From an uncultured Candidatus Saccharibacteria bacterium (GTDB taxonomy: Bacteria > Patescibacteriota > Minisyncoccia > UBA6257 > 1-14-0-10-40-38), in NCBI GenBank assembly GCA_964543265.1, contig CAZIWN010000003.1, forward strand, positions 1-62,593: a stretch of 62,593 nucleotides of DNA. The letters run 5' to 3'. This document shows, piece after piece, positions 1-61,068 of the stretch. The position numbers and the translations under genes are program-made. The notes beneath the pieces are model-generated. The model ran no database searches and was not told the origin of the DNA. It was given only the letters and a program-made list of their open reading frames with translations. How positions within the stretch are numbered: the first letter of the stretch is position 1; every line of letters starts with the position of its first letter.

Positions 1-60
1 AAATAATCCACGAGGAGAGTCTGGTAGACCATATCGCGAGAATCTTTAGGTTTTAGCTTT

Positions 61-164
61 AAATTCCCATCTACTTCGTTACAGTCTTAAATACTTCCCT
101 CGAAGTATTTAATTATTAATACATCTCGGTCGCATTTAAGCCCAAGCCTTGTATATGGGAATTT
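61..164 (+). repeat. Structured ~100-nt intergenic repeat, copy 1 of 5 (conserved core inside a copy-specific closing stem)
   Basis: Closing stem AAATTCCCAT (61-70) / ATGGGAATTT (155-164). Inner hairpin TTAAATACTTC-CCTC-GAAGTATTTAA. Core CTTCCCTCGAAGTATT...TTAATACATCTCGGTCGC aligns with the cores of the copies at 12274, 21645, 23204 and 60743. Confidence 0.5.
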
Positions 165-176
165 ATTTTCTATCAA

Positions 177-3213: not shown

Positions 3214-4062
3214 ATGAAATTTAAGATGTTAAAAAATAATGTGTTTTGGCGCTTTTCTTTTTCGGCCGTATTAGCCGTTTGTTTTTTAACGTCAAATAAT
3301 AGCGTTGCCCTAGCCCAATCTGATGAACTAATAAAATCTGCTAAAACAGAGGCTTCTAGCGCCGTGTCTAAAATATTAGATTTAAAAAATCAAAACCTAG
3401 ATATAAAAGATAAAACAAAAATCGAGATATCTCTTAAAAAGCAAAGCTTAAGTAAAATAGTAGAGATAATGCTTCTTGAAACCAAACAATCAATTTCCAA
3501 CCTAGAAGAAATAAAAGACATTGATTCTAAAATATTAGAGATTAGAGATGGTCTTGTTGTTTTTATGAATGATTACTCTATTGAATTAAGCGACTTGAAT
3601 AAATCATTGCAGGATTCTCAAGACTTAGAGTCCTTAAAGATTATGACCCAGAAAGTTTCTGATATTAAGGAAAAATCTGATAAAGCAGATAAATTATCTG
3701 ACGATCTTTCTTTGTTTTATGAAAATGGAAAGGCGGTTAGAATTGCTGAACAAAGATTCTCTAAAATCAGCAATCAGATTAAAAAGATGGGAATAAATTC
3801 TAAAGATGCGGAAACCATAGATATAATAATGAAAGACGCTTCTAAAAACATAAAAGAAGCTGGAGAGTTGGTGAGTGAAGGAGCTAAATATTTTTTACAA
3901 GAATCTGAAAATTTCAAAGATTTTATCGCTTCAGGTAATGGTGATATTTTAACAACTAAAGGAAAAGAAGATAAATATATAAAGACTTTAGCTCAGACAT
4001 CGCTAGTTAAGATTAAGGTTGCATATAAAGGATTTATATCAATATCCGACATCATCAAATAA
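3214..4062 (+). CDS. Secreted coiled-coil protein of unknown function (third gene of the sigma module)
   Basis: N-terminal signal-like segment ...AVLAVCFLTSNNSVALAQ. The remainder is K/E/D/S-rich and helical-looking. Confidence 0.5.
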   Translation: MKFKMLKNNVFWRFSFSAVLAVCFLTSNNSVALAQSDELIKSAKTEASSAVSKILDLKNQNLDIKDKTKIEISLKKQSLSKIVEIMLLETKQSISNLEEIKDIDSKILEIRDGLVVFMNDYSIELSDLNKSLQDSQDLESLKIMTQKVSDIKEKSDKADKLSDDLSLFYENGKAVRIAEQRFSKISNQIKKMGINSKDAETIDIIMKDASKNIKEAGELVSEGAKYFLQESENFKDFIASGNGDILTTKGKEDKYIKTLAQTSLVKIKVAYKGFISISDIIK

Positions 4063-4088
4063 AAACACCCCGATATCGGGGTGTTTTT
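4061..4088. terminator. Bidirectional intrinsic terminator
   Basis: AAAAACACCCCGAT/ATCGGGGTGTTTTT is a perfect palindrome flanked by A- and T-runs, between convergent genes. Confidence 0.8.
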
Positions 4089-4106
4089 ATTTGATTGCAA
4101 TAAATT

Positions 4107-10511: not shown

Positions 10512-12269
10512 ATGATGGAAAGAAGAAGAACGAACAATGGGCCGAGGAGATTTATAAAAAGAGATCCTGAAGCTGTGCCGGTTAAAAAAGATACTCGCCA
10601 TATGGATGGCGAAGAAACGGTAAAATTTGTACCGCTGGGAGGATTGGATGAAATCGGAAGAAACTCCGCCTATTTTGAATATAAAAATGAAATCGTGATG
10701 ATTGATACAGGAATACAGTTTCCAGAAGAAGAAACTCCTGGAATAGACTTTATTATTCCAAACGTATCATCTCTCGAGAGTAAAAAACAAAATATAAAAG
10801 GAATTTTATTTACCCATGGACACTTGGATCATATCCATGCCCTCCCCTATCTTTTAGAAAAATTGGGTAATCCACTCCTTTATACAACAAATTTAACAAA
10901 AGCATTAATAGAAAAAAGATTAATAGAATTTCCAAACGTTCCCAAAGCTAGGTTCGTAATTGTAAAACCTGGAGATAGGGTTAGAATTTCTGAAAATTTT
11001 GAGGCAGAATTTTTTGCTGTAAGCCACACCATCTTCGACGCTATCGGAGTGATGTTGCATACAAAAATTGGAAAGCTGGTCCACTTTGGAGACTTTAGAT
11101 TAGAAACTTCCAGAGACGGAAAACCTCAAGAATTAGAAGTCTTTGAATGGCTTGGAAAACAGAATGTTCACACAATATTTATAGACAGCACAAATTCTAG
11201 AAATGAAGGTTTTTCTATGTCTGAAGAATTAGTTGAAGAAAACCTTGAGAAATTAATGGTTGGAGCCAAGGGAAGAGTTATTATGGCTTGTTTTGCTTCA
11301 ATCTTAAACCGCTTGGGCGAAATTATTAGAATTGCTGAAAAGCTTGGAAGGAAAGTTGCGCTAAATGGAAGATCGATGAAGGATAATATTCAAATTGCCC
11401 AAACCCTTGGATACATCAAACCTCAAAAAGGAACAATAATTCCATTGGAAGAAATTGGTAAATTTAAAGACGAAAAAATTCTTATTTTAACCACGGGCAG
11501 CCAAGGAGAAGAAAATTCCGGTTTAATGAGAATTGTAAGCAAAGAACACCACTTAGTTGAACTTAAGAAAACTGACACGGTTATATTTTCATCTTCAGTT
11601 GTTCCGGGAAATGAAAGATCTGTTCAGGCCCTACAAGACAATGTCGCCCGACAAGTTGATGAGCTATATAATTCAAAATTATTAGACATTCACGCCTCAG
11701 GACACTGTACCTCGGAAGATATAAAGCTAGTTATGAAATTAGTTAATCCAAAATTCGTTGTGCCGGTGCACGCCTATTACTTTATGAGGAAATTGGTTGT
11801 TAAGCTCGCTGAAAAAGTTGGAATTCCTCCAGAGAGAGTTGTGGTTATGGAAAATGGAGACGTGGCCAAAATCCAACATGATAAATTTATCATCTCTGAA
11901 GATAAGGTAAATACCTCATATGTCATGGTAGACGGACTTGGAGTTGGAGACGTTGAAGAGGTTGTGCTTCGCGACCGCAGAGTTTTATCTGAAGAAGGAA
12001 TGATCGTGATTATTGCCACAATTGATAGAATGACCGGCAGAAGCTTAAAGAATCCAGATATCATTTCTAGAGGATTTATTTATTTGAAAGAAAATAAAGA
12101 ATTACTTGAAGAAATCAGGAAGAAGCTAAGGGGAGTTATTATGAAAATCCCAAATCAGGAAGCTGATGCAGACTTCATTAAAACTTTAATGAGAGAAAGT
12201 ATTTCTTCTTTGATTTTCAGCAAGACTAAGAGAAGACCGATGGTACTACCGGTAATCATCGAAGTCTAG
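10512..12269 (+). CDS. rnj: Ribonuclease J
   Basis: Metallo-beta-lactamase motif HGHLDHIHA, a beta-CASP region and an RNase J-length C-terminal domain. Confidence 0.85.
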   Translation: MMERRRTNNGPRRFIKRDPEAVPVKKDTRHMDGEETVKFVPLGGLDEIGRNSAYFEYKNEIVMIDTGIQFPEEETPGIDFIIPNVSSLESKKQNIKGILFTHGHLDHIHALPYLLEKLGNPLLYTTNLTKALIEKRLIEFPNVPKARFVIVKPGDRVRISENFEAEFFAVSHTIFDAIGVMLHTKIGKLVHFGDFRLETSRDGKPQELEVFEWLGKQNVHTIFIDSTNSRNEGFSMSEELVEENLEKLMVGAKGRVIMACFASILNRLGEIIRIAEKLGRKVALNGRSMKDNIQIAQTLGYIKPQKGTIIPLEEIGKFKDEKILILTTGSQGEENSGLMRIVSKEHHLVELKKTDTVIFSSSVVPGNERSVQALQDNVARQVDELYNSKLLDIHASGHCTSEDIKLVMKLVNPKFVVPVHAYYFMRKLVVKLAEKVGIPPERVVVMENGDVAKIQHDKFIISEDKVNTSYVMVDGLGVGDVEEVVLRDRRVLSEEGMIVIIATIDRMTGRSLKNPDIISRGFIYLKENKELLEEIRKKLRGVIMKIPNQEADADFIKTLMRESISSLIFSKTKRRPMVLPVIIEV

Positions 12270-12273
12270 ATAA

Positions 12274-12381
12274 GATGCTATTAATTTTAGAAATTGTGGC
12301 GTTGCTCCTCCTTGGAGTATTCGCATAGCTTACATACACCTTCGTCGTCGCGCCTTACACTTTCAAAAATTATTTAGCATC
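12274..12381 (+). repeat. Structured ~100-nt intergenic repeat, copy 2 of 5
   Basis: Imperfect ~28-bp closing helix (GATGCTA...GTGGCG / CGCC...TAGCATC). Core GTTGCTCCTCCTTGGAGTATTCGCATAGCTTACATACACCTTCGTCGTCGCGCC. Confidence 0.6.
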
Positions 12382-12389
12382 CGTAGATC

Positions 12390-12432
12390 ATACACAAAAA
12401 TCCGCCACGAAAATGGGCGGATTTTTGTGTAT
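12390..12432. terminator. Intrinsic terminator after rnj
   Basis: 17-bp perfect stem ATACACAAAAATCCGCC / GGCGGATTTTTGTGTAT with a 9-nt loop. Confidence 0.75.
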
Positions 12433-12435
12433 GTA

Positions 12436-21096: not shown

Positions 21097-21633
21097 ATGT
21101 TTAATAAATATAACAACCGACCACAACCTAGAGAGACTCATAAAATAAACGAGAGAATAACAGCTTTAGAGCTTAGAGTTATTGGCGCTGAAGGAGAAAA
21201 TCTTGGAGTTATTTCGAAAGAAGAGGCCTTAAAAATAGCCAGAGAAAAGGGATTGGATTTAATAGAAATCTCCCCCAACGCCCAACCGCCAGTGGCGAAA
21301 ATAATGAGCTTTGATAAGTTTAGATACGAAGAGGAGAAGAAAGCGAAGAAAGCGAAGATTACTCAAAAAGGAAACGAGATGAAACAGATCCAAATCAGCG
21401 TCAAAGCCGCAAAAAATGATTTGGAAATAAAAGTGAGACAATTAGAGAAATTTATGGAAGCGGGACATCCGATTTCTATAGTTTTAACTTTAAAAGGAAG
21501 AGAAAAAGCTAATAAGGACTGGGCGAAGATGAAGATGGAAGAGTTTCTTAATATGATTGGGATGGAATTCAGAATAGTGTCGGCACCTAAGTTCGGAGGA
21601 TACGGCATAAACGCAATTATTTCAAAGAAATAA
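21097..21633 (+). CDS. infC: Translation initiation factor IF-3
   Basis: INERITALELRVIGAEGENLGV... and a typical IF-3 C-domain. Followed by rpmI-rplT. Confidence 0.9.
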   Translation: MFNKYNNRPQPRETHKINERITALELRVIGAEGENLGVISKEEALKIAREKGLDLIEISPNAQPPVAKIMSFDKFRYEEEKKAKKAKITQKGNEMKQIQISVKAAKNDLEIKVRQLEKFMEAGHPISIVLTLKGREKANKDWAKMKMEEFLNMIGMEFRIVSAPKFGGYGINAIISKK

Positions 21634-21644
21634 CCTTGGTTGTT

Positions 21645-21753
21645 AGTATTAATCTTTTTAGCGACCACTTCGTTATTCTTCCTCGAAGTATTCGCATGGC
21701 TCTTACATACATCTTCGTCAGAATGCCTCGTGTTCACTAAAAAGATTAATACT
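21645..21753 (+). repeat. Structured ~100-nt intergenic repeat, copy 3 of 5
   Basis: 17-bp perfect closing stem AGTATTAATCTTTTTAG / CTAAAAAGATTAATACT. Core TTCTTCCTCGAAGTATTCGCATGGCTCTTACATACATCTTCGTCAG. Confidence 0.65.
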
Positions 21754-22046: not shown

Positions 22047-22391
22047 ATGACAAGAGTAAAGAGAGGTAAAACAGCTACTAAAAAACGCGTAAAACTCCTT
22101 AAATATACTAAGGGTTTTAGATGGAGCAGAAAATCTAAAGAAAGAGCTGCAAAAGAAGCATTATTGCATGCTTGGACTCACGCTTTCCAAGGTAGAAAGG
22201 AAGAAAAGAGAAATATGAGATCTCTTTGGCAAGCTAAGATTAATGCCGCAACCAGACTCAATGGAATGACTTATGGAAATTTCATTTTTGGAACCAAGAA
22301 ACACAAAATTGAATTAGACAGAAAAGTTTTGGCAGACATTGCAGAGAATCATCCAGAAGCTTTCAAGAAAATCGTAGAATCTGTTAAATAA
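22047..22391 (+). CDS. rplT: 50S ribosomal protein L20
   Basis: MTRVKRGKTATKKRVKLLKYTKGFRWSRK... is classic L20. Confidence 0.9.
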   Translation: MTRVKRGKTATKKRVKLLKYTKGFRWSRKSKERAAKEALLHAWTHAFQGRKEEKRNMRSLWQAKINAATRLNGMTYGNFIFGTKKHKIELDRKVLADIAENHPEAFKKIVESVK

Positions 22392-22394
22392 AAT

Positions 22395-22421
22395 AAAAAA
22401 CCGCCACAATGGCGGTTTTTT
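22395..22421. terminator. Bidirectional terminator
   Basis: AAAAAACCGCC-ACAAT-GGCGGTTTTTT between convergent rplT and the MGMT-like gene. Confidence 0.75.
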
Positions 22422-22731
22422 ATTTTTCAACTCTATCCCCTACAATTTTTACCCCTTCAGACAAAAGCAATTTCTTTTTTAAAGCTATACCGCGATTGTA
22501 GCCGCCAAGTTTATGACTGGAAAGTATCACTCGGTGGCACGGGATTTGCTGGTAGTTCTGGTTTTGGCTCATTATTTTGCCCACTAGGCGCCATCCCCGG
22601 GTTAGGCCTGCGATAGTGGCCACCTCTTTGTATGTTAAAACCTCTCCTTTGGGGATGCCTTGGACCACTCCTATAATGCGGCCTATGATGTCTTGGTTGT
22701 TGTTGCTGCCCCACGTTTTCTTGTTTTTCAT
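22420..22731 (-). CDS. Methylated-DNA-protein-cysteine methyltransferase-like protein (single DNA-binding/active-site domain)
   Basis: 103 aa with IPKGEVLTYKEVA and the active-site IPCHRV. Confidence 0.75.
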   Translation of the reverse strand: MKNKKTWGSNNNQDIIGRIIGVVQGIPKGEVLTYKEVATIAGLTRGWRLVGKIMSQNQNYQQIPCHRVILSSHKLGGYNRGIALKKKLLLSEGVKIVGDRVEK

Positions 22732-23173: not shown

Positions 23174-23203
23174 ATGTTTTTTAATTAATAAATGACAATC
23201 TGC

Positions 23204-23280
23204 TGCGTTGCAACCTGCGAGACTCCTTCGGAGTAGTTATATTACTATACCTCAGTCGTTTCTCGGTCGCGCCTTGCATC
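23204..23280 (+). repeat. Structured intergenic repeat, divergent copy 4 of 5
   Basis: TGCGTTGC...GACTCCTTCGGAGTAG...TTACTATACCTCAGTCG...GGTCGCGCCTTGCATC shares the blocks GCGTTGC, CTCCTT(C)GGAGTA, TAC(T)ATAC and GTCGCGCCTT with copy 2. Confidence 0.4.
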
Positions 23281-23364
23281 TTATCCTTTCTTAATTAAAA
23301 CGCTTAATTAATATGCTTTAATAATAACAGATATTTATCATTTTAGGAAGCCCTCACATTTTTT

Positions 23365-50248: not shown

Positions 50249-50275
50249 TACATAAAGAATAAGTGGTTCTTAAAT

Positions 50276-50307
50276 AAAAATACCGCAATTGTAATCGCGG
50301 TATTTTT
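50276..50307. terminator. Bidirectional terminator closing the cluster
   Basis: AAAAATACCGC-10 nt-GCGGTATTTTT between convergent genes. Confidence 0.7.
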
Positions 50308-50309
50308 AT

Positions 50310-50738
50310 TTATATAGGCCTTACAACAACGCAACGATCTCTACCCTCTCCACTGCTTTCTGTCTTAACATCTGGTCGAACAGCTAGCTCTGTGTGGACA
50401 ATGCGCCTCTCATAAGCGTTCATAGCGGGAAGGCGAACCTCTGATTTTTGACTAGAGGCACGCCTAGCGGCTGCCTTTGCAAGCTCTATGATTAATTTTT
50501 CTCTTTCTTTTTTGTAACCATTAACGTCTATTAGAAAATACTCCATTCCAGCCTTCTTGGCCATGAGGCGAATAATACAATCTAAATTAAAAATAAGTTC
50601 TGGCAACCACTTTTTAATCCAATTACCTTCATTTACAAAAATATCTATGTGGCGGCCTTCAAAATCTATATTAACCGTAGGCTCAGAGAGTCCTAGAAGA
50701 TTTAAGATATTTTCTATTTGTAATTTAAAGCTTTCCAT
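50310..50738 (-). CDS. jag: Jag/KhpB-like R3H RNA-binding protein
   Basis: R3H ERRIVHTEL, downstream of yidC. Confidence 0.8.
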   Translation of the reverse strand: MESFKLQIENILNLLGLSEPTVNIDFEGRHIDIFVNEGNWIKKWLPELIFNLDCIIRLMAKKAGMEYFLIDVNGYKKEREKLIIELAKAAARRASSQKSEVRLPAMNAYERRIVHTELAVRPDVKTESSGEGRDRCVVVRPI

Positions 50739-59013: not shown

Positions 59014-60738
59014 ATGGATTTTAATTCCAATCAACTTTCGGAAAAAATTCAAAAAATAAGAGAGGAGGCCGAAGAAAAGGATACAGAGAGATTGGCTATG
59101 CAAAAGGGCTTCAATTATATAAATGGGACTTCTTCTCCTGTAAAAATTGATGCCTTAAAGATGATTCCCGAAGATAAGGCCAGGAGTTTAGGTGTTGCGA
59201 TAATTGAATCTAATGGGCCCATCTTAGGAATAGCTTCTATTAATCCAGACTCTCAAGGGGTTTTGGATTTATTAAAAGAATTTAAAGATAAGGGATATAG
59301 TTTTAAAGTTTTTTTAGTTTCAAAAAGAGCATTAGAGAGAATATTTACTTTTTATAAATTCACTTCAGAAAAAAGCTCTATAACTAGTAGGGTTAATATA
59401 GAGAAGGAGAGAATAATTTTCCTAACCAAAGAACTCCAGAGCATACAAAAAACATCCAAATTCATTTTAAGTTTTGATTACGATAAATCTTCTGTGGCCG
59501 AGTTTTTGGAGATAGTTTTATCAGGCGCTTTGGCTAATAAGGCCTCGGATATCCATTTTGAACCAGAAGAGTCAGGTATTAAATTAAGATATAGAATCGA
59601 TGGAGTTCTACAGGATGTTGCAACTGAAATTTCTAGGAATTTTTACCCCTCTGTTATTTCAAGAATAAAATTGCTTTGCAATTTAAAAATTAATATATCA
59701 GATAAGGCGCAGGATGGGAGATTTACTATTGGTTTAACTGAAAAGGACATAGAACTGAGGGTTGCGATTGCGCCATCGGAGTTTGGAGAAATTATAGTTA
59801 TGAGAGTCTTGGATCCAGACTCTATTAAGATAACTTTGCCGCAGTTAGGATTTAGAAAGGATGACTTAGAAATAATAGAGGTTGAGCTTAAGAGGCCAAA
59901 TGGAATGATTTTAAATACTGGACCAACTGGTTCTGGAAAAACGACTACTCTTTATGCCTTTTTGAGACATAAAGCTAATTCGGAAATTAAAATTATAACT
60001 ATTGAAGATCCTATAGAGTATCACGTAAAAGGCATTGAGCAGACGCAGGTAAATGAAGAGTCTGGATATACCTTCGCTAATGGTCTAAGAAGTCTTATGA
60101 GGCAAGACCCAGATGTGATTTTAGTCGGAGAAGTTAGAGACAAAGAAACAGCTGAAATATCTATTGGGGCTGCATTAACTGGCCACTTAGTGTTTTCAAC
60201 TATTCACGCCAACGAGGCTTCGCTCGCCATCCCCCGCTTGGTGGACTTGGAGGTTAAGCCTCAAAGCATTGGCCCAGCCTTAAATTTAGTTATAGCTCAG
60301 AGATTATTAAGAAGATTGTGCGAGAATTGTAAGAAGATAAAAAAAATAGAAAAAGAATTAGAATCTAAAATAAGAAAATTAATAGAAAGGTTGCCTAAAA
60401 GAGTTGATAAGAGCATCTATAAAGACATAAGCATTTTTGAGGCTGGTAAGTGTGAAAAGTGCAACAACACCGGATATAAGGGCAGGGTTGGAATTTATGA
60501 ACTATTTCTAAATGATCCTGGTTACGAAAAAATAATTAATGCTGATTTGATAGAAAAATTAAAAACAAATGAAAACGTTGAAGATTTAATTAGGCGTCAG
60601 GCTGGAGGAAGAGAGATGAAAGAATACGCAATCTCTCACGGAATGGTTACTATGCAGGAGGATGGGATATTGAAGGTTATTACGGGGCAGACTGATTTTG
60701 CTGAAGTAGAAGATGTTACTGGAACCATATTGTGGTAA
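59014..60738 (+). CDS. pilB: Type IV pilus/type II secretion assembly ATPase (PilB/GspE family)
   Basis: Walker A GPTGSGKTTT, MRQDPDVILVGEVRD, tetra-Cys CENC...CEKC. Confidence 0.85.
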   Translation: MDFNSNQLSEKIQKIREEAEEKDTERLAMQKGFNYINGTSSPVKIDALKMIPEDKARSLGVAIIESNGPILGIASINPDSQGVLDLLKEFKDKGYSFKVFLVSKRALERIFTFYKFTSEKSSITSRVNIEKERIIFLTKELQSIQKTSKFILSFDYDKSSVAEFLEIVLSGALANKASDIHFEPEESGIKLRYRIDGVLQDVATEISRNFYPSVISRIKLLCNLKINISDKAQDGRFTIGLTEKDIELRVAIAPSEFGEIIVMRVLDPDSIKITLPQLGFRKDDLEIIEVELKRPNGMILNTGPTGSGKTTTLYAFLRHKANSEIKIITIEDPIEYHVKGIEQTQVNEESGYTFANGLRSLMRQDPDVILVGEVRDKETAEISIGAALTGHLVFSTIHANEASLAIPRLVDLEVKPQSIGPALNLVIAQRLLRRLCENCKKIKKIEKELESKIRKLIERLPKRVDKSIYKDISIFEAGKCEKCNNTGYKGRVGIYELFLNDPGYEKIINADLIEKLKTNENVEDLIRRQAGGREMKEYAISHGMVTMQEDGILKVITGQTDFAEVEDVTGTILW

Positions 60739-60742
60739 GTAG

Positions 60743-60838
60743 TTTAGAATTGCCAAATACTTTGTTGCTCCTCCTTGCAGTATTCGCTTCGCTTACATAC
60801 AGCTGCGTCGTAGCTCCTCGTATTTGTCTAATTCAAAA
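60743..60838 (+). repeat. Structured ~100-nt intergenic repeat, copy 5 of 5
   Basis: Closing helix TTTAGAATTGCCAAATAC / GTATTTGTCTAATTCAAAA (imperfect). Core TTGTTGCTCCTCCTTGCAGTATTCGCTTCGCTTACATACAGCTGCGTCGT. Confidence 0.6.
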
Positions 60839-60891
60839 TTATTTCAGCTCTAATCACATCTATAATACGGGATGATTCTATTGTTGATTAT

Positions 60892-60927: not shown

Positions 60928-61068
60928 AAAAGGCATTAACCTGGGGGCTTAAATTTGTTTCGTGGGGAAACAGGTTTAGAAGTATACCGAGGATGGTTCC
61001 AGCCGGAGCCAAAACGTCCTAGATTTAAGTATATTTCCCGGCCCCCAGATTAATGCCTTTTATTTTTG
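60928..61068. ncRNA. Candidate structured ncRNA of unknown class
   Basis: ~20-bp closing helix: AAAAGGCATTAA+CTGGGGGC (60928-60948) pairs with GCCCCCAG+TTAATGCCTTTT (61041-61061). Internal hairpins TGTTTC-GTGGG-GAAACA and GGTTCC-AGCC-GGAGCC. U-runs on both strands. Relatively GC-rich. Confidence 0.4.

Follow-up and report, generated by a model that had tools for sequence, protein, structure and literature searches.

The window analysed here, a stretch of 62,593 nucleotides from an uncultured Candidatus Saccharibacteria bacterium (positions 1 to 62,593 of contig C3 of assembly G000), carries five copies of a hairpin-forming intergenic repeat, hereafter referred to as rods. A preliminary description of this DNA had placed five structured repeats on the plus strand; all five were located and aligned at these positions, and a search for further copies raised the number to 27 in the whole assembly (12 contigs, 600 kb, about 35% GC). 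The family is real and apparently undescribed. Rods are lineage-specific insertions or deletions, in which the arms travel with the core and the pairing is kept while the arm sequence drifts. The best explanation, to which we give a probability of about one half, is a non-autonomous mobile hairpin defined by its structure and similar to the repetitive extragenic palindromic (REP) sequences and REPINs, which settles at stop codons and is carried, co-transcribed, in the 3' untranslated regions (3' UTRs) of genes. With no match to a catalogued RNA family or transposon, rods resemble a small, so far undescribed mobile element more than an ordinary regulatory RNA. Throughout the text, G001 is a genome of the same genus as G000, and other G numbers denote related genomes.

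Copies and forms of the rod

A total of 27 copies were identified in G000 by iterated nhmmer, 25 of them full and two truncated to their 5' halves. The E-values over the whole assembly ranged from 1e-20 to 1e-4, indicating that the family is not a chance match. The copies sit between open reading frames (ORFs) and differ in sequence by insertions and deletions. Two forms were distinguished. In the short form (14 full copies, including those at 12274, 21645 and 60743 of the window) the core measures about 65 nt; in the long form (11 copies, including those at 61-164 and 23204) it measures about 78-82 nt and is accompanied by an extra helix on either side. With its core (65-82 nt) and arms (10-25 nt), the whole rod measures about 105-135 bp. 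All copies in G000 are single, none forming doublets, and no near-identical pair exists among them. The copy at 23204-23280, previously taken as divergent, is a full member of the long form with a true extent of about 23179-23300, while the copy reported at 61-164 is genuine, with its extent corrected to about 60-165, and also belongs to the long form with the extra helix. Truncation was seen in four copies (Table 1), and all four have kept the 5' (gene-proximal) half and lost the 3' half.

Structure and covariation

A single rod-like hairpin was predicted as the fold of every full copy. The short-form and long-form copies were aligned by MAFFT (alignments A2 and A3, respectively) and subjected to RNAalifold, giving double changes at 22 of 26 pairs in A2 and at 18 of 29 pairs in A3. 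Paired cells in A2 amounted to 89.6%, compared with 72.5% after shuffling and 35-45% with slid partners. A wider alignment (A5) of 53 distinct sequences from more than 10 genera, which were fitted to the model and hence lean towards the structure, gave 87.7% paired cells against 57.5% after shuffling and 36-43% with slid partners, and 405 double-change cells against 114. The core and the outer stems both covary strongly, which bears out the proposal of a structured repeat family. The closing stems are likewise real: the mean duplex energy of cognate 5' and 3' flanks was -15.6 kcal/mol, compared with -5.9 kcal/mol (sd 2.7) for 600 non-cognate pairs.

The small internal hairpin CTCC-TT-GGAG, for which covariation had been claimed, was rejected: double changes were absent, and 69.6% of cells were paired against 70.5% after shuffling. 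Instead, the GGAG/GAAG segment pairs with the 3' CACC/CATC segment in an apical helix, being paired in 98.8% of cells with four pair types at one position. Built around a conserved A.A mismatch, this apical helix has the form G-N-(A)-GTAY ... RTAC-(A)-N-C. The helices are separated by pyrimidine-rich tracts that are conserved and for the most part unpaired, namely CCTCCTCG (5' side) and CTTCGTCGTCG (3' side). Conservation peaks at the centre of the rod and not at its ends, and unpaired nucleotides are conserved across phyla.

The purine-rich strand was predicted to fold better by 6.8 kcal/mol in 109 of 121 copies, an advantage that we infer to arise from bonuses for purine-rich loops. The G.U counts of the two strand folds were equal (211 and 223), which argues against selection on one RNA strand only, and strand assignment by thermodynamics was dropped as undecided.

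One subfamily consists of three G001 copies (C20:1276, C14:2785 and C17:3964) and one G000 copy (C1:268684). Its four members have the outer arms and the apical hairpin in common, while the middle helix of 10-14 bp is wholly different in each copy and yet paired. The element is thus layered, and its inner block may have been exchanged between copies.

Gain and loss between sister genomes

The whole G001 genome was compared with G000, the flanks of rod sites being about 80-85% identical. Both flanks are present on one G001 contig for 21 G000 sites, and among these comparable sites the rod is kept in G001 at one, left as a 5' remnant at one, and missing at 19. At the conserved site (C1:279264 in G000, C19:6214 in G001) the arms are the same and the core shows a compensatory change from GTTTC/GAAAC to GTTCC/GGAAC. 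G001 carries eight copies, three of them where G000 has a mere 13-26 nt spacer. In the cleanest filled and empty pair, the whole rod with its arms replaces 'AA' between unchanged flanks, and no new direct repeat is found.

The flagged copy of the preliminary description, located behind rnj, is missing at this locus from G001 and likewise from six additional genera of this family, and its gain in the G000 lineage is therefore the parsimonious reading. Behind rnj in G001, the stop codon is followed by 10 nt and then by the conserved terminator. The same site carries an unrelated long-form copy in G003 and a 5' remnant in G011. The nearest metagenome relatives of this RNase J that were found are at most 70% identical, too distant for strain-level empty sites. 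Behind pilB, G001 has the terminator alone at the position of the rod, and an unrelated long-form copy elsewhere in the same spacer.

The arms were described as specific to each copy, and they do differ among most copies of the window; they are not strictly copy-specific, however, since subsets at unrelated loci have common arms. The same arms occur at four loci (C1:268684 in G000 and the three G001 copies of the subfamily above), and the copy at 21645 has arms similar to those of C1:253616. Homology of the arms is confined to such subfamilies, within which they have diverged. In G038 and G003 the inner arms are common to many copies, and the outermost stem of 9-11 bp (consensus TA-GRACYTACR) varies by copy, mostly with compensation on the opposite arm. 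Arms follow the base composition of the host, being AT-rich here and GC-rich in GC-rich phyla. Two local origins of the arms were rejected. Copying from the local target flank disagrees with the clean sites, where the arms are, by inspection, unlike the empty-site flanks and only an AT-rich 8-mer is common to both; for capture from the upstream flank of a donor copy, the similarity equals the shuffled null.

These results bear on one of the readings proposed at the outset, in which palindromes pre-existing at gene ends receive a short conserved core at their apex. Such a process would account for arms that differ among most window copies and match the host base composition, for the layered subfamily with its wholly different middle helix, and for other AT-rich palindromic repeats at some of the same sites in G001. 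The empty orthologous sites in G001, which are short spacers, contain no palindrome, and insertion of the core into an existing palindrome was rejected at the sites that could be compared. In addition, it is the whole rod that replaces 'AA', unrelated loci have copies with common arms, the arms are unlike the A-tract/GC-stem/T-tract terminator palindromes of this genome, and the layering is equally well explained by recombination between copies that replaces a contiguous inner block. We thus regard the palindrome-insertion reading as improbable. Because the empty sites lack a palindrome and some arms recur at unrelated loci, we take the rod in its entirety to be what is inserted and lost, its outer layers drifting fast under a pairing constraint.

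At four G000 sites (21645 in the window, C1:285024, C1:264369 and C2:18692), G001 has an unrelated AT-rich palindromic repeat just behind the stop codon, with arms of roughly AAAATCAAATATTAAAGATTAAAATTGCA ... TGCA..TTTTGATTTT. Since G001 carries this other palindromic repeat at the same positions, gene ends seem to be a landing zone common to more than one hairpin family.

Relatives in other genera and phyla

Covariance models were built for the short form (R1) and the long form (R2). Among 41 related genomes, R1 matches were obtained in 16 and R2 matches in nine, with a patchy distribution of at most 20 copies per genome; rods are lacking in 23 of the 41. In an even sample of 401 genomes of the phylum, with few candidates scored per genome, three had matches. 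Head-to-head doublets were found in G002, G006, G010, G023, G034, G039 and Omnitrophota, the two copies being about 25-30 nt apart and in one case up to about 115 nt. Such doublets, frequent for the short form in other genera, are built around a small CCC-GAAG/TTCG-GGG hairpin and lie inside a locus-specific long stem; the unit has the same appearance on either strand.

One genome per GTDB species was then covered by a cross-phylum scan with a degenerate core pattern followed by R1 scoring. Full-length R1 matches of 28-61 bits were obtained in at least 10 other phyla or classes, listed as Omnitrophota (including a closed Velamenicoccus genome), Planctomycetota, Methylomirabilota, Eisenbacteria, Verrucomicrobiia, Deltaproteobacteria, Gammaproteobacteria, Clostridia, Saccharibacteria and Peregrinibacteria, with 2-7 copies each in five distant genomes. 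Some columns are fixed by the design of the degenerate pattern; conservation nevertheless extends to the flanks GCGTTGC and GCGCCTTG, which the pattern leaves free. Gene context was left aside in the GC-rich phyla, the ORF calls being too noisy for use. As a control, the same pattern gave 11 matches in IMG/VR viral contigs, of which one was a weak match to the covariance model, and carriage by phages was rejected on this ground.

A bolder reading of this distribution, which we consider rather unlikely, is that a core of about 57 nt, consisting of an apical GTAC-type helix with the fixed loops CCTCCTCG and CTTCGTCGTCG on its two sides and surrounded by fast-evolving self-complementary outer layers, would be a cross-phylum recognition module for near-universal bacterial machinery, or else a self-processing nucleic acid. 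Rods would then represent a new transposase-free class of mobile elements that homes just past stop codons.

Position behind stop codons

For 24 of the 26 assessable copies in G000, the pyrimidine-rich strand coincides with the coding strand of the nearest gene upstream, and in 22 of these 24 the core starts 10-33 nt past the stop codon. Given arms of 10-25 nt, this usually puts the first base of the rod no more than a few bases away from the stop codon. Single copies in G001, G003 and G038 are placed likewise, and clustering of rod starts around the stop codon was seen in four genomes. Behind two of the window copies (copies 2 and 5 in Table 1), separate canonical terminators are located downstream of the rod and are conserved in G001, where the rod is missing; these rods accordingly lie inside 3' UTRs. 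Standing upstream of the terminator of its gene, a rod must be transcribed into the 3' UTR or the inter-cistron spacer. Several copies lie only 29-55 nt before the next gene and thus within operons, leaving too little room for a promoter. Rods as intrinsic (Rho-independent) terminators were rejected, because the outer stems are AT-rich and mostly without a T-run and because separate terminators follow copies 2 and 5.

Among the upstream genes, Pfam identified those for RNase J, IF-3, PilB, KhpA, RNase III, NusG, MreB, ClpP, an NYN-domain protein and an RNase-H-like protein. Genes serving RNA metabolism appear often among these (RNase J, RNase III, KhpA, NusG, the NYN-domain protein, the RNase-H-like protein and IF-3). 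A type IV pilus cluster at C1:274-287 kb carries six further rods.

The position of rods raises the alternative that they are primarily a cis-acting structured RNA module of 3' UTRs and inter-cistron spacers, whose spread is secondary. The conserved internal loops would then bind a host protein or ribonuclease, and the rod would act as a processing or stability element, as an RNase III site, or as an obstacle to ribosomes or exonucleases at the stop codon. This alternative is in agreement with the sense orientation of the pyrimidine-rich strand (24 of 26), with the location of rods at the stop codon ahead of separate terminators, with the same placement rule in G003 and G038, with the conservation of unpaired nucleotides across phyla, with the compensatory change in the orthologous pair of G000 and G001, and with the operon-internal copies that lack promoter room; RNase III, RNase J and KhpA are all encoded, and all three genes are followed by rods. 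The turnover between congeners speaks against it: with one of 21 sites conserved, no particular gene depends on the element, and turnover as high as this argues against a gene-specific regulator. Furthermore, the sense strand has no excess of G.U pairs over the antisense strand, it is the antisense strand that is predicted to fold better (by the above margin in 109 of 121 copies), the copy adjacent to the stop codon in doublets is opposite in orientation, and rods keep to one strand per contig beyond the expectation from gene orientation. We consider an RNA-level function of this kind possible; it is the main rival of the mobile-hairpin reading and clearly less probable. Rods may likewise give rise to a discrete small RNA (sRNA), one of the proposals made at the outset.

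Strand and replication

Within each contig of G000, all copies (27 in total) occupy the same strand, which is minus for C1, C2 and C5 and plus for C3, a uniformity with P of about 5e-6 if each copy followed a random gene. In G003, too, all copies of a contig share one orientation, as nearly all do in G038. The strand of the copies agrees with the sign of GC skew. Copies are completely missing from C1:0-185 kb and C4, which make up about 40% of the assembly and contain 249 ORF-based gene calls. The 27 copies all fall within the part with strong GC skew (C1:185000-307375, C2, C3 and C5), the skew being about -0.1 to -0.29 on this part of C1 (C1b), C2 and C5. The region C1:0-185 kb and C4 have weak skew, with genes mostly on the plus strand. 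The sign of the skew flips near C1:170-185 kb, with unequal magnitude on the two sides.

Rods might on this basis be strand-specific host signals on single-stranded DNA, such as priming or fork sites on the lagging-strand template, being neither selfish nor RNA elements. The uniform orientation per contig in agreement with the skew sign, the conserved unpaired bases in the hairpins, and the same face shown by doublets on both strands would all suit such signals. A host signal of this kind, however, would hardly be missing from about 40% of an assembly and from 23 of 41 related genomes, nor would it turn over so extremely between congeners, and the link to stop codons has no replication rationale. 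We judge this explanation very improbable, the least probable of those considered.

Searches for known families and for a mobiliser

With Rfam release 15 at gathering thresholds, only transfer-messenger RNA (tmRNA) and transfer RNAs (tRNAs) were detected in the whole window, and two copies searched at E values up to 10 gave noise only, with E above 0.8. In twelve doublet and cross-phylum loci, Rfam detected only tRNA and a c-di-GMP-I riboswitch elsewhere in the loci. The Rfam comparison suggested in the preliminary description thus gave no family match, and a known RNA family was ruled out for both single copies and doublets. No description of the rod family was found in open-access literature text, where a search by sequence string gave nothing but unrelated matches to primers.

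The Y1 transposase domain of RAYT and IS200 (PF01797, Y1_Tnp) is present in several rod-less genomes, and positive controls were detected in 6 of 14 named genomes. All inverted pairs of rods seen are at most about 115 nt apart and, together with the lack of a recurrent neighbouring protein (see below), they give no sign of the autonomous, transposase-encoding parent expected of a miniature inverted-repeat transposable element (MITE).

Features of the window

The five rods of the window, the genes and the terminator associated with them, and the truncated copies are listed in Table 1. The genes earlier named as rnj, infC and pilB were confirmed by Pfam as those for RNase J, IF-3 and a PilB-type ATPase, and the neighbouring tRNA was found to be tRNA-Arg.

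Table 1. Rods, associated genes and terminator in the window, and truncated rods in G000 and related genomes. Scores are for covariance models R1 and R2; I numbers are inverted repeats.
Feature	Position	Strand	Details
Copy 1, long form	60..165	+	Core 72-153; arms 60-74 and 151-165; R2 91 bits; I24; upstream gene lies beyond window start; tRNA-Arg about 220 nt away
Copy 2, short form (flagged)	12274..12381	+	Core 12295-12359; arms GATGCTA.../...TAGCATC; R1 92.9 bits; folded; begins 5 nt past rnj stop codon
Copy 3, short form	21645..21753	+	Core 21666-21732; arms 21645-21668 / 21730-21753 (24 nt, 92% complementary); R1 93.2 bits; I2; upstream gene infC; different AT-rich palindromic repeat at this site in G001
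Copy 4, long form	23179..23300	+	Core 23201-23278; arms 23179-23203 / 23276-23300; R2 103 bits; I6; one of two copies without same-strand gene upstream; missing from G001
Copy 5, short form	60743..60839	+	Core 60758-60822; nhmmer E = 2e-20; R1 87.2 bits; begins about 5 nt past pilB stop codon
RNase J gene (rnj)	10512..12269	+	Pfam RNase_J_b_CASP, RNase_J_C; stop codon adjoins copy 2
Intrinsic-terminator-like perfect 18-bp inverted repeat (I9)	12389..12433	+	Downstream of copy 2, which therefore lies inside the rnj 3' UTR; same terminator in rod-less G001
IF-3 gene (infC)	21097..21633	+	Pfam IF3_N, IF3_C; upstream of copy 3
PilB-type (T2SSE) ATPase gene	59014..60738	+	Pfam T2SSE, E = 9e-110; upstream of copy 5
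Truncated rod	G000 C1:239557-239621		
Truncated rod	G000 C3:64736-64778		
Truncated rod	G001, site of C1:278035		
Truncated rod	G011, after rnj		

Perfect or near-perfect palindromes of 17-21 bp, with an A-tract, a GC stem and a T-tract, were observed in the window at 4054-4095, 12389-12433, 22390-22426 and 50271-50312. From their sequence they look like bidirectional intrinsic terminators, and they are the real 'empty' palindromes of this genome. Downstream of copy 5 and its terminator, a GC-rich 21-nt inverted repeat (AAAAGGCATTAACCTGGGGGC / GCCCCCAGATTAATGCCTTTT, 95% complementary) encloses 92 nt at 60928-61061; it is probably one of the GC-rich cassettes mentioned in the preliminary description.

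Discussion

Strand uniformity within each contig, extreme turnover, symmetry of the doublets and the occurrence of truncated remnants are all in keeping with a DNA element. Such an element would move by way of a single-stranded intermediate that is folded. The recognition module would be the core found across phyla, in which the fixed, pyrimidine-rich internal loops CCTCCTCG and CTTCGTCGTCG face each other, and mobilisation would occur in trans, through an enzyme that is not encoded beside the element. Effects at the RNA level would be secondary and would decide where copies are tolerated, the rod acting as a barrier to exonucleases, as a target of RNase III, or as an obstacle for terminating ribosomes.

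Several observations weigh against the mobile-hairpin reading. Sense orientation and stop-codon contact would suit an RNA role, and the stop-codon spacing, the sense orientation, the conserved unpaired bases and the compensatory change between orthologs fit RNA function equally well. Replication strand and gene strand are hard to separate cleanly in a fragmented assembly in which gene strand is correlated with skew. PF01797 gave no match in nine rod-bearing genomes (G000, G001, G003, G006, G013, G015, G034, G036 and G039), and RAYT or IS200 as the mobiliser was rejected accordingly; no protein family recurs within 8 kb of the element at 29 cross-phylum loci. Neither a target-site duplication nor a fixed target motif could be defined: a TA...TA frame fits the G038 copies and not most G000 copies, and a divergence of 15-20% between the compared genomes blurs the exact junctions. 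Finally, the private copies could in principle reflect differential loss, and G000 has no two near-identical copies of the kind that recent transposition within this genome would leave.

If the mobile-hairpin reading is true, reduced genomes of about 0.5-1 Mb, under strong reductive pressure, would still host an active population of hairpin elements, amounting to about 0.5% of their DNA. These would sit where translation ends, in the 3' UTRs of core genes such as those for RNase J, RNase III, IF-3 and NusG, gyrB and the pilus operon. The presence of this core in Omnitrophota, Planctomycetota, Firmicutes, Proteobacteria and the candidate phyla radiation (CPR) would then imply broad horizontal transfer of a non-coding element or a shared, as yet unnamed recognition partner. 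Either case would offer a handle on how transposase-less palindromic repeats are mobilised (the 'CGTC-REP problem', PMC3733652). In practice, the covariance models can flag these elements and so prevent their mis-annotation as sRNAs or terminators, and the elements are useful as markers of recent genome change between close CPR relatives.

Comparison with known systems

Rods resemble the REP/REPIN (RAYT) system in being short extragenic palindromic repeats that are present in many copies, mostly downstream of genes, and co-transcribed. They also resemble it in occurring both as singlets and as inverted head-to-head doublets that fold into long hairpins, and in that recognition would be by structure and not by terminal repeats, no target duplication being seen. 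The differences are considerable. A REP is an imperfect palindrome of 20-40 nt, one end of which has a conserved head of GTAG (or CGTC; PMC3733652), whereas rods have no terminal GTAG and contain CGTC only internally. A rod is 3-5 times as long, its core is asymmetric and conserved and its outer stems vary, and single rods show strict sense orientation and stop-codon contact. A RAYT gene, typically with such repeats on its flanks, is expected in the genome, whereas rod-bearing genomes are without a RAYT/IS200 gene. In one preprint, REPIN-RAYT systems are described as mostly vertically inherited (bioRxiv 10.1101/2022.05.22.493013), in contrast to the rod core, which is common to several phyla. 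Rods thus fail the defining tests of REP/REPIN, having no RAYT, no GTAG/CGTC head and the wrong size.

The CGTC REPs, which include dRS3 of Neisseria and RPE-4/6 of Rickettsia, are palindromic, apparently without a dedicated transposase, located mainly downstream of coding regions, mostly head-to-head dimers, and distributed over several phyla (Di Nocera, De Gregorio, Rocco 2013, PMC3733652). Their stems of 8-9 bp start with AT and enclose loops of 4-5 nt, and a CCA tail follows (PMC3733652). Rods also contain CGTC, inside the conserved CTTCGTCGTCG tract. They do not, however, share this architecture of stem, loop, AT start and CCA tail, and their CGTC is internal and not a terminal tag.

Correia/NEMIS of Neisseria and ERIC/IRU of enterobacteria are hairpin-forming MITEs, that is, non-coding, imperfect palindromes of 100-150 bp that are intergenic and co-transcribed. 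They form long RNA hairpins that can be processed by ribonucleases such as RNase III, and no transposase is encoded in the element. Rods are similar to these as dispersed, co-transcribed, non-coding hairpins of about 100-150 bp without their own transposase. Correia and ERIC have conserved ends (terminal inverted repeats), are inserted in either orientation and do not extend beyond a genus or family; in the case of Correia, a TA target is duplicated. Rods, in contrast, are best conserved at the centre, show no demonstrable target duplication, are strand-specific, and extend across phyla. Compared with a MITE, rods show no uniform terminal repeats, no demonstrable target duplication and no autonomous parent. 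The earlier argument that a MITE would have conserved terminal repeats is itself weakened, the arms of rods being homologous within subfamilies and the outer stem in G038 having a consensus.

The palindrome-associated transposable elements (PATEs), derived from IS200/IS605, have no terminal inverted repeats and no target duplication, and use hairpins as recognition elements, in the form of two different subterminal hairpins. Single-strand 'peel and paste' transposition is expected to show a replication strand bias. In the apparent lack of terminal inverted repeats and target duplication, in the putative recognition through hairpins and possibly in strand bias, rods are similar to PATEs; they differ in consisting of one rod instead of two subterminal hairpins and in the missing Y1 transposase, and no conserved tetra- or pentanucleotide target was seen 5' of rods. 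In concept, the nearest relatives of rods are REP/REPIN, the transposase-less CGTC REPs, and hairpin MITEs such as Correia and ERIC.

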